From Mytilus edulis (lineage: Eukaryota): a stretch of 64,000 nt of DNA. Both the position numbers and the translations under genes were made by a program. The notes under the pieces were generated by a model. It saw only the letters and a list, made by a program, of their open reading frames with translations. It ran no database searches and was not told the origin of the DNA. This document shows, in pieces, positions 9,241 through 58,600 of this stretch (within the stretch, counting starts at the first letter, position 1; every line of letters starts with the position of its first letter). Location of the stretch: NCBI RefSeq assembly GCF_963676685.1, contig NC_092348.1:67394001-67458000 (forward strand). The letters are read 5' to 3'.

Positions 9241-9422
9241 GGAGGTTGTATCATGGTTTGAACTACTTTGTTGCTAAGTTTGGAGCCTCATATATAAAAC
9301 AAAGTCAATTAAATCTCACACAGAAATATAATACATCGCTCGACAATTTTTTAAAAGAAAACGTCAAGTTATTCTCATAATATAAAATAAAAAGGTAATT
9401 GAAGCTTTAGAACACAGATTAA

Positions 9423-9813
9423 TATGGTGGCCGGTTAAGGCCATTTCGCGTTTTCGCGTTTTCGCCCATCATATTATATAGGGCGAAAACGCGAAAACGC
9501 GAAATCGCGAAGTCGAAAACGCGAAAACGCGAAGTCGAAAACGCGAAAACGCGAAGTCGAAAACGCGAAAACGCGAAATATTTTTTCTTTCCGATTTCGC
9601 GTTTTCGACTTCGCGTTTTCGACTTCGCGTTTTCGCGTTTTCGCGTTTTCGACTTCGCGATTTCGCGTTTTCGCCTTTTCGCGTTTTCGCCTTTTCGCGT
9701 TTTCGCGATTTCGCGTTTTCGCCTTTTCGCGATTTCGCCTTTTCGCGTTTTCGCGATTTCGCGATTTCGCCTTTTCGCGTTTTCGCGATTTCGCGTTTTC
9801 GCCTTTTCGCCTT
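9423..9813 (-). repeat. CGCGAAAA-family fold-back terminal module, copy 1
   Basis: 8-mer variants CGCGAAAA/CGCGAAAT/GGCGAAAA and CGCGAAGTCGAAAA in alternating-orientation blocks. Confidence 0.9.
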
Positions 9814-9868
9814 AAATTATAGGTATATTGATCCAATATCCACCCGTTTATAGTATGGATCACATTTC

Positions 9869-10367
9869 TATGGTGGCCGGTTAAGGCCATTTCGCGTTTT
9901 CGCGTTTTCGCGTTTTCGCCCATCATATTATATAGGGCGAAAACGCGAAAACGCGAAATCGCGAAGTCGAAAACGCGAAAACGCGAAGTCGAAAACGCGA
10001 AAACGCGAAAACGCGAAGTCGAAAACGCGAAAACGCGAAGTCGAAAACGCGAAAACGCGAAATTTTTTTTCTTTCCGATTTCGCGTTTTCGACTTCGCGT
10101 TTTCGCGTTTTCGACTTCGCGTTTTCGCGTTTTCGCGTTTTCGACTTCGCGATTTCGCGTTTTCGCCTTTTCGCGTTTTCGCCTTTTCGCCTTTTCGCGT
10201 TTTCGCGATTTCGCGTTTTCGCGTTTTCGCGTTTTCGCGATTTCGCGATTTCGCGATTTCGCGTTTTCGCGTTTTCGCGATTTCGCGTTTTCGCGTTTTC
10301 GCGATTTCGCGTTTTCGCGTTTTCGCGTTTTCGCGATTTCGCGTTTTCGCCTTTTCGCGATTTCGTG
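9869..10367 (-). repeat. CGCGAAAA-family fold-back terminal module, copy 2
   Basis: Same layout as copy 1, more units. Confidence 0.9.
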
Positions 10368-10462
10368 TTTTATATACCAATACATATTCTTAGTATTTGA
10401 CTTTATTTCATAATCTATTTTGTTCAATTAAATATTTTATCATAAATATTTGTTGTTTTTTA

Positions 10463-10610
10463 AGGTGTTTCGGTTAAGGTTTAACTACCAAGGCTTTTCC
10501 TCATCAGGTATCCCAAGCCTCTAACTAATAAAATAATCAGTTTCAAAGTAAAGTTCAAAGCATCCATACGCATAGAATTTAAAAATTCTGCATACCGGGA
10601 TACGACACCT
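10463..10610 (-). ncRNA. Type III hammerhead ribozyme (predicted)
   Basis: Minus strand: AGGUGU-C cut GUAUCCC ...long loop I... GGGAUAC-CUGAUGA-GG...CC-GAAACACCU; stem III AGGUGU/ACACCU, stem I GUAUCCC/GGGAUAC, GUC triplet; possible loop-loop pairing AGGCUU/AAGCCU; stem II is short. Confidence 0.78.
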
Positions 10611-10712
10611 GGTAACTTTGTATTGATGTATTGTATTCTAAATTAAATCAGTTTATGATTTGATATAACCATTGTCTTTTATGTTGTGATTTATCCTATA
10701 ACTTGGTTTATC

Positions 10713-11345
10713 CTATAACTTGGAGGATGTAAGTAGATCCTTCAAGTTTTTGTGTCTTTTATATGCTATGATCGGAGGTTTTGGAAACATGGTTTTTGTG
10801 CTATCATTTTGTTCAATTAGGTGCCAATGTTTTTTAATTGCTTTATTTAGTCCATTGAAGGAAGGATTAAATTTGGTGGCTAAAACAAATGGAGGCATTG
10901 CTCTTTTGTTTTTAAGCTTGTACCTTAGACAATCTTTTCTTTCCTTATGAAGTGCATTTGTTATAATGGGGTTGATATCTTTTTCCGAGTATCCCCTTTG
11001 GAGAAGTTTTGTTTTAAAAGTTTCAATTTCTTTTAGTGTATCTTTTATGCATTTTTCTACCTAGTTCGGCAAAATCTCGTAAGAGATTTTGTTTTGTTTA
11101 ATGTATTTTACATCAGGACTGGGAATAAATTTTAATCCCTTTGCAAGAACTAATATTTCATAGTTTGTGAGATTCTCACGTGAAAACACTTCTATATAGT
11201 TTAAAGCTTTTTTTACATTTTCATGAAAGTGTTTTGTGCGTTTAAGATGGCCTTTGTTATTATTATGTATACGGAGTTTACTTTTGTATTTTATTAATCG
11301 TTTTTTCTTATCCCTTTTTCTGAGAGATCTTTTTCTATTACTCAT
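10713..11345 (-). pseudogene. Internally deleted Penelope-like reverse transcriptase ORF (N-terminus fused to thumb/C-terminus)
   Basis: N-terminal NLTNYEILVLAKGLKFIPSP and (after a CAAAA duplication frameshift) LLRDFAELGRKM joined near 11049 to FKTKLLQRGY...KKHWHLI...PPIIAYKRHKNLKDLLTSSKL*; RT core absent. Confidence 0.8.
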
Positions 11346-11583
11346 AGTAATTTATTTGTATAAATTTGTTTTGTGACAAAACTATTTTGTTTGTTTGTAT
11401 AATTATTTCAACTCTAATTGAGAGATGAAATGAATATATATGAACTTCAACTCTATTTGAGAGATGAAATGTATTTTATTAATTCTACTCTATTTGAGAG
11501 ATGAATTGATTTGTATTTTGTTTAAATCTATTTCAAAAATTATACATTGTATATGTAAACTCTGTTGAAGTGTTTGTTCACTT

Positions 11584-11724
11584 GTATCCCGGTATGCAGA
11601 ATTTTTAAATTCTGTGCGTATGGATGCTTTGAACTTTACTTTGAAACTGATTATTTTATTAGTTAGAGGCTTGGGATACCTGATGAGGAAAAGCCTTGGT
11701 AGTTAAACCTTAACCGAAACACCT
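11584..11724 (+). ncRNA. 3' cleavage-product copy of the type III hammerhead (lacks 5' strand of stem III and GUC)
   Basis: Homology to 10603-10463 begins at GTATCCC (11584), preceded by unrelated TTCACTT instead of AGGTGTC. Confidence 0.75.
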
Positions 11725-11816
11725 TAAAAAACAACAAATATTTATGATAAAATATTGAATTGAACAAAATAGATTATGAAATAAAGTCAAATACTAAGAA
11801 TATGTATTGGTATATA

Positions 11817-12374
11817 AAACACGAAATCGCGAAAAGGCGAAAACGCGAAATCGCGAAAACGCGAAAACGCGAAAACGCGAAATCGCGAAAACGCGAAAAC
11901 GCGAAATCGCGAAAACGCGAAAACGCGAAATCGCGAAAACGCGAAATCGCGAAAACGCGAAAACGCGAAATCGCGAAAACGCGAAATCGCGAAATCGCGA
12001 AAACGCGAAATCGCGAAAACGCGAAATCGCGAAAACGCGAAATCGCGAAAACGCGAAAAGGCGAAAACGCGAAAAGGCGAAAACGCGAAATCGCGAAGTC
12101 GAAAACGCGAAAACGCGAAAACGCGAAGTCGAAAACGCGAAAACGCGAAGTCGAAAACGCGAAATCGGAAAGAAAAAATATTTCGCGTTTTCGCGTTTTC
12201 GACTTCGCGTTTTCGCGTTTTCGACTTCGCGTTTTCGCGTTTTCGCGTTTTCGACTTCGCGTTTTCGCGTTTTCGACTTCGCGATTTCGCGTTTTCGCGT
12301 TTTCGCCCTATATAATATGATGGGCGAAAACGCGAAAACGCGAAAACGCGAAATGGCCTTAACCGGCCACCATA
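11817..12374 (+). repeat. CGCGAAAA-family fold-back terminal module, copy 3
   Basis: Longest of the four copies; ends GGCCTTAACCGGCCACCATA. Confidence 0.9.
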
Positions 12375-12380
12375 CATTTC

Positions 12381-12464
12381 CGACCTTACATTGATTACGT
12401 GCTACGTGTACAATGTTTCGAGTTCTTTCGGAATTATATTCCAGGTAACTCTCTTCAGAGGTCG
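12381..12464 (-). ncRNA. Type I hammerhead ribozyme (inverted copy)
   Basis: Reverse complement of 13490-13573 with all core nucleotides and stems intact. Confidence 0.85.
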
Positions 12465-12484
12465 TCCGTTTTATTTTTATTTTA

Positions 12485-13214
12485 TATAGCTATATACCAA
12501 CATATAAATAAAATTCTAAACATCTTTCCACACAAAAACAAAATATTATTTCATAAACGTATGAAGGATGATGGATATATTTTATTTCAAGGTACTACGG
12601 AAGAAGTTAAACTTCTTTTCGAAATAGCAAACACAAACCACAACCTACTGCAATTTACTTATGAAATTGACAGACAAAGTTTGAAATTTCTAGACTTAGA
12701 AACGTATAAAGGACAGAGATTTCAAAAAGAAAATATCTTAGATATTAGATGTTTCACAAAACCAACTGAAAAATTCCAATATCTACACCAAAATTCTAAC
12801 CACGCTAAAAGTTGTTTTAAATCCTTTATTAAAGGTGAAGGAATACGAATTCTTAGAAATACCTCTGATCCTGACAATTTTAATGAAAGAATAAACTTAT
12901 TTACAGAAAAATTAATACAAAGAGGTTACAAAATCGCTTTTGTAAATAAAATATTAAGAAATATTTCCCATACAGAAAGATTAAACAAATTAACAAACAA
13001 AGAAACAAGAATAAACAAAAACACAGATAACTATAATATATCTTTCATAACACAATACCACGCTAATGCGGAAAATTTACAAACCATTATAAGAAAACAT
13101 TGGCATTTAATTCAAGACAACCCACAGTTCAAAAATCTCTTTGATAAAAAACCCACAATAGCATTCAAAAGAAACAGGAACATTGGGGAAATCGTTAAGA
13201 AACACTTGAAATAA
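12485..13214 (+). CDS. 5'-truncated Penelope-like reverse transcriptase (end of motif B', motifs C-E, thumb), open frame, no GIY-YIG domain
   Basis: FHKRMKDDGYILF (motif C), LQFTYE, LKFLDL, FTKPTEKFQYLHQNSNH, FIKGEGIRILRNTS, KLIQRGY, PTIAFKRNRNIGEIV then stop; the first ~29 codons of the ORF-track call 12399-13214 are just the inverted ribozyme arm. Confidence 0.85.
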
Positions 13215-13489
13215 ATCAATGTCTCCCAATAGAAATTAATTAGACAGTTATACTAAAACCAAAGGAAGGTGCGTTGACAATGAAAAATGCATATTGAAAC
13301 GTATCTTAAACAATAACCAAAACCAGTTATCCATACGTTGATAAAACGAACAATAATAAATAAAAGGTACAATAATAAATAAAATGTACAAAATAATAAA
13401 CAAACAAACATTTAAAAATAAAAATAAAAATAAAAATAAAAAATAAAAATAATAATAATAATAAAAATAAAAAATAAAAATAAAACGGA

Positions 13490-13573
13490 CGACCTCTGAA
13501 GAGAGTTACCTGGAATATAATTCCGAAAGAACTCGAAACATTGTACACGTAGCACGTAATCAATGTAAGGTCG
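13490..13573 (+). ncRNA. Type I hammerhead ribozyme (predicted)
   Basis: CGACCU-CUGAAGA-GAGUU...AACUC-GAA-ACAUUG...CAAUGU-A cut AGGUCG; stems I (6 bp), II (5 bp), III (6 bp); GUA triplet, cleavage after 13567. Confidence 0.88.
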
Positions 13574-13628
13574 GAAATGTGATCCATACTATAAACGGGT
13601 GGATATTGGATCAATATACCTATAATTT

Positions 13629-14051
13629 AAGGCGAAAAGGCGAAAACGCGAAATCGCGAAAACGCGAAAAGGCGAAATCGCGAAATCGCGAAAACGCGAA
13701 AAGGCGAAATCGCGAAAAGGCGAAAACGCGAAATCGCGAAAACGCGAAAACGCGAAATCGCGAAAACGCGAAAAGGCGAAAACGCGAAATCGCGAAGTCG
13801 AAAACGCGAAAACGCGAAAACTCGAAGTCGAAAACGCGAAATCGGAAAGAAAAAATATTTCGCGTTTTCGCGTTTTCGACTTCGCGTTTTCGCGTTTTCG
13901 ACTTCGCGTTTTCGCGTTTTCGCGTTTTCGACTTCGCGTTTTCGCGTTTTCGACTTCGCGATTTCGCGTTTTCGCGTTTTCGCCCTATATAATATGATGG
14001 GCGAAAACGCGAAAACGCGAAAACGCGAAATGGCCTTAACCGGCCACCATA
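13629..14051 (+). repeat. CGCGAAAA-family fold-back terminal module, copy 4
   Basis: Forward array, spacer TCGGAAAGAAAAAATAT, reverse array, loop CTATATAATATGAT, short forward array, terminal GGCC hairpin. Confidence 0.9.
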
Positions 14052-14189
14052 GATTAAAGTGTAATTTGGCATTTCTTAAGACAAGGGACGCTATAACTTC
14101 TAAAGAATAGTACTAAGTAAAAGCAGAGAGCACAAACACATTGGTTGCCCTGGGCTGCATGTTTTCTTTCCTTTGGTTGTGTTGTTGTC

Positions 14190-20100: not shown

Positions 20101-22128
20101 GACAATAGTGCTAAGATGGCACCAGCAGACGACACACACCCAGACGTGAAAATTGTTAAGTGGAATGGAGGGAATTTTGTCGATCCACATTCATCCAAAG
20201 TAGTATCGTTTGGCAGACGAAAACGCAGTACAGACCAGATTTTCACTTTACGAAATGTTGACCAAACAGTATCTGGACATTCTGCGTGTACACCTCATTA
20301 TGATTTATTCTGGTTCAAGGACATTGTTGGGTACATGGGTGACATGTGTTGGGTGCTTGGAAAATTTTCTCGAAAGTTTTACTATTCTTCAAATTGTATG
20401 TAAGTAAATATATATTTTTTTCTAGGATTTCACACGAATAAACCATACAGTTACAAATCTTTGTCTGTAAAACAAAAACCGATATGGCGGCAAAATAAAT
20501 TGAATTGCAATGGCAATCGGAAACACAGACACGAATCTGCTGTACACGACAGCAAAATTAATTGTATTGCAATGACAATCGGAAACCATACAACAATCTG
20601 CTGAACACGACAGCAAAACCTTTGTATTGCAATGTCAATCGGAAACACATTTTCAGACAACAATCTACTGTACACGACAGCAAACTCCATTGTATTGCAA
20701 TGACAATCGGTAACACAGACAACAATCTGCTGAACACGACAGCAAAATCCATTGTATTGCAATGGCAATCGGTAACACAGACAACAATCTGCTGAACACG
20801 ACAGCAAAATCCATTGTATTGCAATGGCAATCGGTAACACAGACAACAATCTGCTGAACACGACAGCAAAATCCATTGTATTGCAATGACAATCGGTAAC
20901 ACAGACAACAATCTGCTGAACACGACAGCAAAATACATTGTATTGCGATGGCAATCGGTAACACAGACAACAATCTGCTGAACACGACATCAAAATCCCT
21001 AGTATTGCAATGTCAATCGGTAACACAGACAACAATCTGCTGAAGACGACAGCAAAATCAATTGCAATGGCAATCGGAAACACAGACAACAATCTTCTGA
21101 ACACGACATCAAAATGCATTGTATTGCAATGGCAATCGGTAACACAGACAACAATCTGCTGAACACGACAGAAAAATCATTTGTATTGCAATGACAATCA
21201 AACAAACACAGACTACAATCTGCTGAACATGACAGCATAATTCATTTTATTGTAATGGCTATCGGAAACACAGACAGCAATCTGCTGAACACGACATCAA
21301 AATGCATTGTATTGCAATGACAATCAAACACAGACAACAATCTGCTGAACATGACAGCAAAATTTATTGTAATTGCAAAGGCAATTGGAAACACTGCCAA
21401 CCATATGATGTACACGATAGCCAACACAATTATTTTAATAGCAATCGGGAACACAGATTCATATTGTATCTGCCGTATCGATTGCCGGTGCATTTTCAAA
21501 AATGTGCGCGAAAATGTTGAAGATACATGTGATCGTTTCATGATTTTAAGCCTTTATATTTGAATTTTTCGCAGTAATATCTGCATTTCAAAAATTAAGG
21601 CAAACGGTACACCTTTTTAACTTTACTTGAATTTCTGTTCTAAATGCATATGGCGATGCATTTGATTATATTTTTTTTGCATTTGGATCGAACATTTCTG
21701 ATTATTTCTCATTTTGTTTGAGGATGTTTTCAGTTTCGTCACATATATTCCAATGAATGACAATGTATTTCTTAAACTTCAATAAAATACTGTACTACAC
21801 ATATAATTGTCAAGATTTAGTGATTTATTGTGAAAGTATGATTGATTCAGTGAAAGGAATTTGATAAAGGGTCCTATTTCAAAGCCATGCAGTCACGGTT
21901 CTTTAAGGTAGTAGTTTTTATGAACATCTGTATAATCTTTGTTTCATTTTTTTCAGGCCTGGAGTGTGTCATGCATCAAATCCATTATTCAGGAAGCAGT
22001 CCCATTGTTATCCTGGAAAGCATTCTACACACGTTATATGGTTTTATTGTCCAAATTTAGAACCTGGTGAAAGGTATCGAAAAATGGCGTTCAATTTGGC
22101 TCACAACTGTGAATGCAGGACGTGTTGA
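17180..22128 (+). CDS. Secreted cystine-knot (spaetzle/neurotrophin-like) precursor, ~369 aa, 5 coding exons
   Basis: Exons 17180-17197, 17302-17465, 17671-17838, 19812-20399, 21957-22128 with compatible phases; signal-like MITAWMFQSVCLLVIVFS; furin-like RHKR, KNKR, RRKR; C-terminal 9-Cys domain ending HNCECRTC*; AATAAA at ~22152. Confidence 0.75.
18600..18958 (-). repeat. Dispersed repeat family (copies at 31488-32248 + and 60105-60595 -)
   Basis: Shared AAAATTGAGAATGGAAATGGGGAATG...GACAACAACCCGACC...GGCGTCCTTCAGCTGGCCCCTAAAC sequence. Confidence 0.7.
20492..21470. repeat. 62-bp minisatellite, ~15 copies, intronic
   Basis: Unit ATTGTATTGCAATGGCAATCGGTAACACAGACAACAATCTGCTGAACACGACAGCAAAATCC at 20751, 20813, 20875; edges degenerate. 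Confidence 0.9.
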
Positions 22129-38242: not shown

Positions 38243-41200
38243 ATGGAGATCCATAGTAGCAGTCTTGAATGGAATGTCCGTAATTTAATGTTATCGTTGC
38301 TGCACGTTGCTTTCGGGTAAGCAATCACTTCCATTTCTTATGATATATGTCGGCACTGCTGTTAAATTTGAATAGATATAAATTTTCTGGCGTTACGTTT
38401 TACTATTTTTAATCTAAGACTGAATACAATCGCTTGAATTAATTGTAAAAGTCAAATTCGCATATTTATATAACATTTTAAAACTATTCTATTCCTTTTT
38501 TTAAAGAATAACATTCAGTGTGACTTTATTACTGTCTTTGAGAATTATTTTGTTGAATGGGTGGTAATTTTGCAGGATGAACAGCGGTACATTAATTCTG
38601 ACTAGTTATTGTTTTCACTTTCAGTGAAATAGAAGCTAACGTTATGTCTGGTAATTGCAAAGAGATTGAAATACCTCAGAATAACAGAGAATCCGAAAGG
38701 GAGGGAAACGAGTATGTAAGATTCGCTTTCTTGAAGGATGTAAATAACTCAGAAAGTAACAATCTTATTGAGGCATTGGATCTTAAAGATGAAAAGGAAG
38801 CAACAAACACAGATGACAAATGTGCTGCTTTCTACACGTCCGTCAGAGATGCTGAATACAATAAACTTGTTGAAGCATATGACAAAGAAAAGATAATCAA
38901 AGAAGAAAAGGAGAGAAAGAGGATATCAAGAGACGAAGAAAAGTTAGATTCGACTGAAGTCATATCAGCCAAAGAAGTAACAGACGAAGGCGAATATGCT
39001 GATTTCTACAAATCAGTCAGAGATACTGAATACAATAAACTTGTTGAAGCATATGTCAAAGAAAGGATACTGAAAGAAGAAAAGGAGGCAAATATAAAAA
39101 CAAGAGAGCAAGAAAATGTAGATTCGTCTGAAGACATATCAGACGAAGACGAATGTGCTGCTTTCTACACGTCCGTCAGAGATGCTGAATACAACAAACT
39201 TGTTGAAGCATATGACAAAGAAAAGATAATCAAAGAAGAAAAGGAGAGAAATAAGATAACAAGAGAACAAGAAAAGATAAAAAAGCAATTTGAAGAATTC
39301 TGGAAACCAGCCGCTGACATTGATTCTCTGCGGCATGTTTCCCAAAAGGTATTTACAATCATATTTTTTTTTAATTCTATTTTTCTTCCACTTTCAAAAT
39401 CTTCTGAGTATTGGGTGTTAGGGAACGTAACGGTAGATTTTTTTAACCGCGGTGTTTATTGTTTTGTGTACAAACCCCTAGTATCAGCGTTAATATCAGA
39501 AACAATTGTACTTTTCTAGAAGCTAGCGTCCAATCAACCATCAGTTCATTGTGTTTTTTTCTTCTGCTTAAAACATTTTTTAATTGACTTGTTTTTGATA
39601 TTGTGCATTGAGAGCAAAACTGTTTACTTTTCGTAATTTTCATATCTTCTCATATTTTTTTCTTTTCGAAAGCCGAATGACAGTAAAGAGAAGGCTTGTG
39701 CTTCACAACAATATCTACATCTTAAAGTGGAACCAATAGAGAAAAGACAAACAGGACCCTTCCTATCACCGGTGAAAGAAGAAAGAGTAAAATCATTTGT
39801 GAGAGAACAGCATTACAATTATCAAAGCTTCCAAAGTACCGATGTGAGGAATGCACCTATCAACAGTAAGCATATATAGAAATTATTTTTCTAGTGAAGT
39901 GGTTTTAAAAAAGATACAGAAACACAAATGAAGAAGTAAATAAATTTCGTGACCGATTGGAAATAAAATCCCAATAAATAACACATAATAGTTATTCACT
40001 ACGGAACCCTTAACGCAAATATAAGAATACGGAAATGTGGTATGATTGCCAATGAGACAACTCTCCACACACCACGTTTTGGCTAAGATTCATCTATATG
40101 TTATAAGATAATACCAGTTTTATATACCAAATCAACAGTATAAACGGTATCAATTATACTGCACCTGATCGAGCACCTGATACGCATTTCAATAATAAAT
40201 GTCTCTTCAGGGATACTGAAAATTGTAAAACGAACTTTGAAGAGCTGAAGAAACCAAAAAGGACCTAACGTATAAAACATATCACACACAAAAAATGAAA
40301 ATTACAAGTAAGGAAGCACATGTCATTTTTTGGTGTTTCAACGGTGTGTGCTATCTACTTTCAAGTTTATAATTGAGGAACATTCTTGCTTTGCTTTTCA
40401 GGAGAACTGGACACAGCTGTAACAATTAGTGAAACTGTTCCCAATAAGAGGGGTTCTCTTCAACGGATGGTCAACAAAGTATTTAAGGTAAACGATATTG
40501 ATATTGTAATAAACAATTAAATTGCAGTTAACTTGAGAAAAAACGGAATTTTACAATATTCACATGCACTGGTGTAGTAAGTACTCTGCCTGCCTATTAG
40601 CCTCTGTCATAATGAAACAAAATATCAAAATTACACACAGGTAATCCATTTTTTAACATGACAGGCTTAAAAAGACGTAACACTTTGATTTGCTCTATTT
40701 TTCAGAGAAGCAAGCCTTCAACAAAAGACATCAATGATAACCAGCTTGTGTTAAAGGATGAACTAAAGTTAGATTTGTCGACATTGGATGATATAACTGA
40801 GGATGAAGGTAATTTATATCATATCACCTTTTTCTATCTAACATAGTTGCCATTTTATAACCTTGGTGGATTTTCAGTTCATAATGAATCTTATCAAATG
40901 TTGCATATCATCAGTAATTGTAATTCAAATTTTTCATGAAAAACTTTGAAAATTAAAACTGATTTTTTTTTTATACAATGTTTTACAAAGTATGTTCTCA
41001 ACCTCCAATTAAAGATGAGATTGCAAATAGCGAGTGTGTAAATAAATTTATCTTACTTTCACCTCTCCTATGTTAATAGTACATGTCCATTTTCTTTTAG
41101 ATATACCAGACACATCAAGAACGTCAGACAGTGAATGGTTCAGTATTAGTTTAAGTGACACAGAAGAAACGCCAAGACCACATTTAAGGCCATTCTTTTC

Positions 41201-55600: not shown

Positions 55601-58600
55601 TTTGAACCCTGCACATGGCAGGTGTATTCAACTCCAATCTTAATTGACTAGAATTGTCAGTTTTCCTGTCAAAGGTCAGGACTCTCTGCAGGCAAGTTTG
55701 CTTCCTACTACAGTAAAAACTGACTGCAATGATGTTGCTCAAAAGTACTGGAAGTGGCATTAACCACCAACAATCAATCTATCAATCAGAATACCTTTAT
55801 CTGCCCTTACTTTCAATAATAAGTTATGATAATAAATGTTTTTATTTATACAGTCTTTTTTTTATCAGCCTTGACCATGATATTGCTACAACTTTGCAGA
55901 TTAAAATTAATATATTTCAAGGAATACATGTAACATACCTGGACATTCCAAGGGTGATGGTGTTAACAAAGCATCTTCTCGTCCAGAATTTCTCAAATCA
56001 TCTTTAGCTAATCCAAAGTCACCTATCTTTACATGAAGCAGATGACCTTGAAGAAATATATTTCTGGGCTGAAATTACAAAACACTTTGAGTATCATAAG
56101 ATTAACCCACATATCCAGGAGAAAAAAGTTAATCCATATATATCTACCCTGTAATAAAAGTATACTGTGGATTTTTATAATTCATTTGATACCATTTTTT
56201 GTTGATTTCTATAGTCGCCGTCAGCTGAAATTCGTAGCGGTTATCGGTAAAAATAATCTAAACAATCAATCACGTTCACTCGAGATATAGTTTTTCACAT
56301 TCCATTCATAAATCACAAAAAGAAAAACCACTACTGACCTACCTTTTAAGTGATTGCACTGTAATAATCCTGACCTTCACTTTTTCATAGACGATTTTGA
56401 ATGGTGGAATCAGCCATTGTTTTTACCGGAAGTGTTTCCGTGGAGTTCAATTTCATAAAATTTGCATAAAGCGCGGGAAACCTTATCACATCAATGAAAG
56501 GAACATTTCAGGAAACTGCGTACAGTGACGAATGTCAAATGTAAACAAATGATCCTCATAGAAACGAAGATGGCGGAATTACAATGGAAAATATTCTGGA
56601 AAATGTGAAGGTCAGGATTATTACAGTGTGATCACTTAAAAGGTAGGTCAGTAGTGGTTTTTCTTTTTGCGATTTATGAATGGAATGTGAAAAACTATAT
56701 CTCGAGTGAACGTGATTGATAGTTTAGATTATTTTTACCGATAACCCCTACGAATTTCAGCTGACGGCGACTATATATAAAAATTAAAGATGAATTCAAA
56801 TGTTCTACAATACATAACTGTCTTGTATGCTGACTTCAGCAAAACCATGATATCAAATGTACAAGAAAATACAATTTTCCATCAATTGACAATGATTGAT
56901 AAAAAAATGATATTCAGGAAATTTTTTAAAAAAAATTCCACAGTGTACCCTTTTCTAATTTCTAAGCATGGTTTTCTATTGTCAAGAAAGGGTATAATAA
57001 TTAGGCATATACAAATGTAAATTCTTACTCTTATTAATTTATCACCTAATTACAGCATCAGACATGTATCTTGGAACTTTTGTTTGCAGTGATAGATTCT
57101 AAGAGATATTCAATAAAATTGATAGTCTAGTTCTTTTTTGTACAATAAATAAATCGTTTTGTCATACATATCTGATCAATGTTCCCTAGTAAGGTGACAT
57201 TTCAATCAAATCCAATTACACGTTTTAAGAGGAATTATGCTTGTTTGGTAAAATAGACATGTTGAACATAACCTTTGGAGAATAAGTAAAGTACAGTCTA
57301 CTCCTTTATTTGTACTTACTTTCAGATCTCTATGTATCAGACCATTGGAATGGATAAAGTCTTCTCCTTTATTTGTACTTACTTTCATATCTCTATGTAT
57401 CAGACCATTGGAATGGATAAAGTCTTCTCCTTTATTTGTACTTACTTTCAGATCTCTATGTATCAGACCATTGGAATGGATAAAGTCTTCTCCTTTATTT
57501 GTACTTACTTTCAGATCTCTATGTATCAGACCATTGGAATGGATAAAGTCTACTCCTTTTACTAACTGTTTAAATATCCTCATGTTAGCTGCTGCATTTG
57601 TCTTAAACTCTGAAATAAAAAAGATAAAAAATATAACATTTTGATATTCATTTATTCTGAATGTTGAACAACTTTTACTAAAAAAATTGACAATGAAATG
57701 TACATGTATGTTTTCCCCAAGCAAACATATGAATGCCAATATAAAATATTAACAAAAAAATCAGTTAGTTGCTGCTTTAATTGACCAACAAGAGTATGCA
57801 TGAATATCTATTTGTTATGATGCCTAACATTGATTTTAACAATTGTCATGCATGCAATTTCTATCATACATTTGGAATTAGGTTTAAATTCATTGAAATT
57901 TGACAGGCTCTAGTGATGTACCACAGTTATCATTGACCATTAAGAAAATTAGATCCAAAGCCTTTTGTCTCAAATTAAAAATTTACTCAGTGCTGAAAGT
58001 TCAAAATTTGTTCTAATGAAACAAATTCCGTGAGTATTGAATAGTTTGATTTTTGAGTCAATAATATCATACTCAACATTTTCATAACCACAAGGCCTGG
58101 CCTCGCGGTCATAAAACTTTTGAGCATGGTTTTTGTACTCAGACTCGAAAATCAACCAATCAAATTGCTGGATTTCATGTTTCGAGCATGATCTTTGTGC
58201 TCCGAGTTTTATGCCTTCAAGGCCAGAACTTCATGAAGTTTTTGGAACACAGATATATATTAGACTGATTCTGTTATACATAATACTTACCAAGAAATGA
58301 AGAACATTGAGTATTTCTTTTCTGCATGTATTCCCTGAGTGTCACACTACATAATTCCATTTGTATAAACAATGTTACATGAATCTGAGTGAAAATAATA
58401 CAATAATGTTTTCATTAATAAATATTATTTTTGTCACACTATATGATTACCAGTACACATTATGTGGATTTATTTATTTTGTTGGTGCTATTTTATAGTA
58501 GTTTCAGACAACTTGCAATTGTGTGGCTATTTGATTTCGTGAATTTGCAAAAACTGCATGCAAGTTTATAGAAAAGTTTTTATTGGTTAAACATTCTCCT

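Follow-up and report, generated by a model that had tools for sequence, protein, structure and literature searches.

Two oppositely oriented copies of a hammerhead motif flank a reverse transcriptase (RT) frame in the genome of the mussel Mytilus edulis, which raises the question of what kind of element they belong to, whether they cut RNA in the cell, and how they came to lie in inverted arms. The locus was analyzed within a window of 64,000 nt (the whole stretch of DNA studied here, positions 67,394,001 to 67,458,000 of NC_092348.1). In our assessment, the hammerheads are likely to be the 3′-end ribozyme of an endonuclease-less, two-ORF Penelope-like element (PLE) that cuts tandem transcripts in the cell, and a truncated piece of this element, enclosed by the arms of what is probably a DNA transposon of the IS3EU type, likely spread as inert cargo.

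Sequence and predicted fold of the hammerhead pair

The two motifs, located at 13490–13573 (plus strand) and 12381–12464 (minus strand), are one identical 84-nt sequence on opposite strands. In both copies, the minimum free energy and centroid folds agree on stem I (CGACCU/AGGUCG), stem II (GAGUU/AACUC) and stem III (ACAUUG/CAAUGU), which are combined with the core letters CUGAAGA and GAAA and a GUA triplet. Cleavage is predicted between 13567 and 13568 in the right copy and between 12387 and 12386 in the left copy. The pair has the features of a type I hammerhead, namely CUGANGA and GAAA cores, an NUH triplet, and three helices of which helix I is open-ended. The fold energy of −22.6 kcal/mol (z −3.9) was matched by none of 200 shuffles, and a strict hammerhead descriptor, applied to both strands, gave two matches in the 64-kb window (this pair) and none in 100 shuffled windows. 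An Rfam scan of the hammerheads returned no family at or above its gathering score. The original prediction of intact type I hammerheads in both arms is borne out by the descriptor, the fold statistics and the identity of the 84 nt. Its placement of the ribozymes in the arms of the outer element also holds; the element ends at 14051, however, and the right copy alone is followed by a 484-nt stretch, because a 2.5-kb inner element splits the left arm at 6 nt beyond the ribozyme.

When 1.1 kb was folded with the antisense arm left out, the probability of stem I and stem II was only 0.24–0.30, which counts against easy folding in context. In the fold of a read-through RNA with both arms, the ribozyme stem probabilities are 0.0 on either strand. 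Since the arms would pair in such an RNA, neither ribozyme is predicted to fold in the window, and the window's own pair is likely to be inert cargo with both ribozymes blocked by arm pairing.

Loop II had been proposed to act in a six-base switch. The hairpin GGAAU/AUUCC and the complementarity between UUCCGA and UCGGAA (13521–26 with 13571–76) on which this idea was built are both present. The switch itself gains no support from comparison: there are no compensatory changes, two of the six pairs are broken in the sister family described below, and the conserved loop II hairpin explains the loop II bases equally well. In family A folds, the six-base helix does compete: its probability is 0.25–0.29 at intermediate 3′ ends and reaches 0.58 when the RNA ends at 13590, but it drops to about 0 as soon as the tail hairpin is formed. 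A contact between loop I and loop II via three outer pairs, outside stem I, is possible.

Organization of the window element

The outer element spans 9423–14051, starts with TATGG, ends with CCATA, and has the target-site duplication GATTAA on each side (9417–9422 and 14052–14057). Its left arm (9423–9813, minus strand) is a terminal inverted repeat with CGCGAAAA blocks, followed by an inverted copy of the retroelement 3′ hairpin tail (9814–9868, minus strand). This tail is separated from its ribozyme by the inner element (9869–12374), which has arms like those of the outer element and a 6-bp duplication of its own, CATTTC (9863–9868 and 12375–12380). The cargo of the inner element is a piece of a second endonuclease-less PLE family, comprising a type III hammerhead (10464–10609, minus strand, predicted cut between 10604 and 10603), an internally deleted RT remnant (10730–11343, minus strand), and an inverted copy starting exactly at the type III cut site (11584–11820, plus strand). 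Both arms of the inner element stop 35 nt before the usual 3′ end of the type III family, possibly reflecting an optional PLE tail.

Beyond the inner element, the left hammerhead lies within an inverted stretch (12375–12487). It is followed on the plus strand by a 5′-truncated RT (12489–13214), a 3′ untranslated region with an expanded AAAAT run (13215–13489), the right hammerhead, a hairpin tail (13574–13628), and the right arm of the outer element, a "repeat module" of ~420 nt (13629–14051). The hairpin tail is the natural 3′ end of retroelement insertions and the putative RT start signal. The RT fragment is 99% identical to full-length copies and corresponds to residues 410–649 of the parental 649 aa, up to the regular stop codon behind the thumb; it lacks motifs A and B′ as well as the DKG-like motif. 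With these residues only, the window therefore provides no RT mRNA, contrary to what had been supposed. Nor does the anatomy agree with a functional RNA of ~480 nt, of which just 61 nt come from the retroelement and the remaining ~423 nt are DNA-transposon arm.

Two sets of candidate genes were rejected: a GTG frame from 12399, an artefact of the inverted ribozyme, and long frames across the CGCGAAAA blocks, artefacts of the repeat. Elsewhere in the window, tandem arrays occupy 20490–21454, 57292–57606 and 38812–39308, with units of 62, 63 and about 170 nt.

The parent retroelement

A genome search with the ribozyme gave 67 candidates, of which 40 were scored, all 97–100% identical; the exact tail pattern occurs at 42 genomic places. 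The ribozyme copies split into two groups, a parent retroelement and a fixed cassette. The ribozyme and 61-nt tail form the 3′ end of a young two-ORF PLE, referred to here as family A, whose unit of ~4.2 kb consists of ORF1, RT, 3′ untranslated region, hammerhead, and a 55-nt hairpin tail. Measured from stop to stop, ORF1 has 229 codons and the RT has 650. The copies are partial tandems, head-to-head pairs and 5′-truncated inverted copies, interstitial in the chromosomes, and the repeat module is absent after their tails. In all, the tail is followed by 25 distinct sequences, one of which is the module. Telomeric repeats were found within 150 nt of none of 83 tails, and none of 10 head-to-head insertions had a target duplication that was clear at both junctions within 45 nt. 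Sequence contigs from other runs (X1 and X6, one of which may be the assembly's own sample) contain the parent and the inverted junction. In one RNA-library contig, the tail continues into sequence ahead of ORF1. All run data were contigs, which show neither RNA ends nor strand nor circles.

The layout of ORF1 and RT is repeated in three further families, while the related L046 family consists of 2566-bp tandem units in which ORF1 is missing and the RT is accompanied by a type I hammerhead whose loop II is very long. The RT stop comes immediately after the thumb in five families of this genome. No GIY-YIG match was detected in the family RTs or in four ORF1 proteins, and structure prediction for one ORF1 sequence gave, at low confidence, long helices only (pLDDT 41).

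Several junctions and arrays involve more than one family or version. A family A RT fragment lies head-to-head with a sister-family tail at L036 (near 5140), and a sister-type tail is located upstream of ORF1 at L032; the two junctions suggest template sharing between family A and the sister family. At L160, L163 and L164, the type III family is present as tandem arrays of a version with an internal deletion (210 codons), a non-autonomous retroelement that is still being copied.

Relationship of the RT to other Penelope-like elements

Among 120 listed RT homologues, the nearest are 640–700 aa long and end at the thumb; the 44 best-matching RTs (BLASTP identity of at least 35% or in that rank) end no more than about 35 aa from the query end, or earlier. 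In a tree of 110 rows (FastTree, midpoint root), from which proteins shorter than 560 aa had been removed, one branch (SH 100) unites 48 short RTs, among them all five of this genome, and the sister side contains RTs with a C-terminal extension, many of them with GIY-YIG. Clade members with names, among the listed homologues, are from Mytilus, Saccostrea and Pinctada, and a protein named for Mytilus galloprovincialis is 98% identical to the window RT.

Pfam found no RT domain match in the query RT itself, whose identification as a PLE-type RT is based on homologues with RVT_1, the GIY-YIG-bearing next relatives, and motifs. Searches of PDB sequences with the RT and with the L081 frame, putatively LINE-like, gave nothing meaningful. 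The C-terminal GIY-YIG of the endonuclease-bearing PLE clades (Penelope/Poseidon, Neptune, Nematis, Hydra) is absent. The element also differs from Naiad/Chlamys, which combine an N-terminal GIY-YIG fused to the RT with the lack of a canonical hammerhead, a hammerhead being present here. Partial tandems, inverted 5′-truncated copies, and a hammerhead in the terminal repeat are all Penelope-like features. It is possible that an endonuclease is supplied to the parent element in trans.

Indirect evidence for a working ribozyme

The core and stems are conserved across copies, in line with the original prediction, both in family A and, with compensatory changes, in a sister family. The conservation of family A says little by itself, because its copies are 97–100% identical. 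The sister family, with an RT 58% identical, retains the core, and both sides are changed in three of six stem I pairs and one of five stem II pairs; the foot of its stem II has an A–C opposition or an extra base. In the hammerhead alignment of the two families, 96.6% of cells are paired, compared to 20–44% in slid controls; the covariation concerns 4 of 17 pairs and amounts to about four or five events in two families. Hammerheads at the corresponding place after the RT stop were also found in four more distant families (two type I, two type III), with three of the four motifs read by eye because the descriptor excluded an extra base before stem II. Read by eye, the hammerhead of the L049 family has the same type III topology as that of the inner element, with a changed stem I.

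The clearest indication comes from tail-only pieces in the genome, which exist alongside copies with the whole ribozyme. Three of the seven in family A begin at the predicted cut (0/−1), four at +5 to +9, and none within the ribozyme, in a count that excludes three complete but internally altered ribozymes as well as the insertion site in the window itself. The sister family has 25 such pieces, 19 beginning at 0 to −2 (15 at 0), one inside the ribozyme and five later, where 30 of 45 pattern matches were taken as loci and one whole ribozyme was left out. In the type III family, the second arm of the inner element and three further pieces begin at 0, and one at +48. Tail pieces that share one array are not independent, and starts at −1 or −2 may be chance matches. 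The simplest reading of the tail-only pieces is run-off cDNA synthesis that reached the 5′ end of a self-cleaved RNA template. Since genomic pieces begin at the predicted cut site, they are likely a record of cleavage in the cell, and the hammerheads are probably active in the parent element. In two type III copies, at L130 (near 1590) and L122 (near 1660), the cut site itself carries extra A's, which looks like a cleaved end that was tailed and then re-joined.

The probable carrier transposon and its cassette

The junction between tail and module has one form only, present in 17 places that represent 10 loci (seven two-armed and three internally deleted). Six other cassette loci share the identical RT truncation point and are 99–100% identical, with 0–1 substitutions and changes in A-run length; half lie in each orientation, and each has its own 6-bp duplication. 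TATGG...CCATA ends with an exact 6-bp duplication were found in nine of nine two-ended cassette loci, and a 6-bp duplication in all 10 two-ended elements of the first set. The terminal 27-mer of the carrier has 95 genomic occurrences. A further set of 18 two-ended members includes 16 with exact 6-bp duplications. By content, 12 of the 18 harbor the type III cassette, three carry other DNA, and three are empty (288–374 nt). One member contains an old host repeat (relatives 72–87% identical) together with flank, and 260 nt are duplicated in its other arm; another has a doubled stretch of 1.3 kb. As host DNA is doubled between the arms, arm doubling takes place at the DNA level and an RT is unnecessary for it.

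The TA..TA termini and 6-bp target-site duplication of the carrier are those of IS3EU/GingerRoot elements, making it a probable IS3EU-type DNA transposon. A transposase gene with the carrier's exact ends was found in none of 20 stretches read (near 17 of 151 rva_4 matches). A large rva_4 element in five copies was rejected as the autonomous partner, as the related short element sits inside it and does not form its end. A large element at L139 and L151–L159 exceeds 17 kb; its copies at five loci are about 99% identical, and it holds tandem repeats, an rva_4 frame and, inside it, a short element related to the TATGG type. L146:3510-6938 is a compact TATGG...CCATA element of a family other than the carrier's. 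It has a 390-codon rva_4/rve frame, arms rich in repeats and a duplication of 6 bp, and is a candidate autonomous IS3EU-type element. L131–L133 (C7:42.306–42.326 Mb) hold ~20-kb elements with 6-kb inverted arms that are 99.9% identical, with similar pairs on C3, C4, C5, C10 and C14; arms of this type each contain a 436-codon rva_4 frame, and their ends are unlike those of the TATGG family.

Proposed history and alternative explanations

We propose the following sequence of events. The ribozyme would cleave tandem transcripts into unit-length RNAs with the tail as their 5′ end, and the RT would begin some 60 nt beyond the cleavage position. Where the template is uncut or re-joined, it would copy the tail, the ribozyme and the RT gene; on a cut template, it would run off after about 60 nt and produce tail-only pieces starting at the cut site. 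Because regular insertions contain the ribozyme and have their end 60 nt beyond the cut, the RT would also have to use uncut or re-joined RNA, with an internal start at the hairpin. Priming of the endonuclease-less RT on existing DNA ends would account for the absence of clear target duplications. One such insertion may have been primed on a T-run of a transposon arm, and the second, inverted ribozyme could be a product of the inverted structure common in Penelope elements or of copying from one arm to the other, as the carrier family does with ordinary host DNA too. The cassette shows the pattern of a single DNA unit that moved, with new 6-bp duplications, to 10 loci, presumably through a transposase.

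The locus had previously been viewed as one retroelement, whose ribozymes would free a structured RNA or circle of ~480 nt, carrying the repeat module, from the RT mRNA. The right ribozyme is intact, it is followed, up to the element end, by 484 nt with strong self-complementarity, and one contig, from a run guessed to be RNA, passes from tail into module. However, this contig may be DNA, the RT lacks its first 409 residues, and the module is missing in full-length parents and is found empty and with other cargo. Moreover, the junction is a single one, the released RNA would have no known 3′ end, and the arms are predicted to block ribozyme folding; with the 6-bp duplications at fixed TATGG ends weakening it further, this model is very unlikely. 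The least probable explanation is a decayed or chance hammerhead, retained because the copies are young: the near identity of family A copies (97–100%) and the lack of an Rfam match would fit such a motif, but the compensatory changes relative to a family whose RT is 58% identical, the hammerheads in the corresponding position of four more distant families, and the cut-site footprints all argue against it.

A closer relationship between the two kinds of element appears rather unlikely to us, although it deserves more weight. Endonuclease-less Penelope RTs might prefer breaks, due to cruciform or transposase cuts, in the arms of this foldback transposon, attach a retroelement end to both arms simultaneously, and gain the transposon as a second vehicle. 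Consistent with this, a type I and a type III family, both young and unrelated to each other, have their 3′ ends on the same T-rich block in the same orientation, family A is joined at its usual 3′ end, and 10 (type I) and at least 14 (type III) loci resulted; the second arm of the inner element begins at the cut site, so that its inversion would have been made by the RT. Against it stand the small number of events (two), the uptake by the carrier of old host repeats with the same arm doubling, and the location of most parent copies elsewhere. Furthermore, the retroelement has no obvious gain from cargo that is unable to specify a working RT. We favor a truncated retroelement end carried as inert cargo. 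In the most far-reaching interpretation, which we regard as possible and put forward tentatively, bivalves would carry an unnamed, still active, interstitial clade of two-ORF PLEs that lack an endonuclease and prime on broken DNA ends, with full-size type I and type III hammerheads that cut in vivo and have left their record in cDNA pieces starting at the cut, and with IS3EU-type foldback arms as a preferred landing site where ribozyme-bearing ends of retroelements become mobile DNA cassettes.

Comparison with known systems

PLE hammerheads, endonuclease-less two-ORF PLEs at telomeres, occasional endonuclease loss, and mussel retrozymes are already known. Metazoan PLE hammerheads are minimal and dimer-type (PMC4209133, Cervera and de la Pena 2014). 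They resemble the present motifs in being type I within a terminal repeat, in their tandem and opposite-strand pairs, and in the role proposed for them in precursor RNA processing; an extra base 5′ of stem II occurs both in those motifs and in several relatives here. The hammerheads described here differ in having a 6-bp helix III and monomer folding, like the fungal and protist endonuclease-deficient motifs, and two related families use type III, unlike the PLE motifs of that paper. Whereas that paper reportedly gave no in vivo evidence, genomic pieces begin at the cut site here.

Athena, Coprina and Terminons (PMC8557442, PMC6431247) are alike, by description, in their two ORFs, lack of endonuclease, 3′ hammerhead, and 5′-truncated tandem arrays. 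However, Athena and Coprina are telomeric, with telomeric repeats beside the hammerhead, and the element here is interstitial (0 of 83 tails). In our tree of listed homologues, its RT is sister to GIY-YIG-bearing PLEs. Endonuclease-less families sometimes arise within endonuclease-bearing clades, as in MjPLE01 and PLE-X (PMC8557442). A two-ORF Neptune that does possess an endonuclease has been published (PMC12602865).

In Poseidon PAc of Anolis (Frangieh et al. 2024, PMC11167929), reverse transcription is initiated internally, at a stem-loop that lies downstream of the hammerhead, with uncut RNA as a template. PAc is the one PLE tested in vitro; it did not require cleavage, and reads starting at the cut site were reportedly not found. 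An internal RT start, demonstrated for PAc, is assumed for the elements here. Unlike the parent element, PAc has an endonuclease, and it is in the present genome that pieces start at the cut site.

IS3EU/GingerRoot elements are defined by TA..TA ends and 6-bp duplications (PMC10045372); the carrier differs from them in being non-autonomous, in its long, foldback-like arms that grow inward, and in its cargo of ribozyme-bearing retroelement ends. The non-LTR retrozymes of Mytilus (PMC7229834), which are non-coding repeats of 350–390 bp in about 5000 copies, have in common with the present motif the host group and a type I hammerhead, whereas the motif here has another sequence, about 40–45 copies, and an RT-coding unit of 4.2 kb. 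In the literature searched, neither this interstitial bivalve clade nor PLEs with type III hammerheads nor the capture of a ribozyme by an element with terminal inverted repeats was described; Repbase, subscription papers and supplements may already hold these families.

The role of PLE hammerheads is described as unclear in PMC8557442, and the cut-site starts in three families bear on this question. The ribozymes are monomer-type and easily assayed, so the role of PLE hammerheads is testable in a young family with open reading frames. The interstitial endonuclease-less clade would also come close to modeling how telomerase-like RTs act on broken ends. The hammerhead pair studied here suggests that a DNA transposon can multiply ribozyme cassettes together with long inverted repeats, which calls for caution in genomic ribozyme counts.
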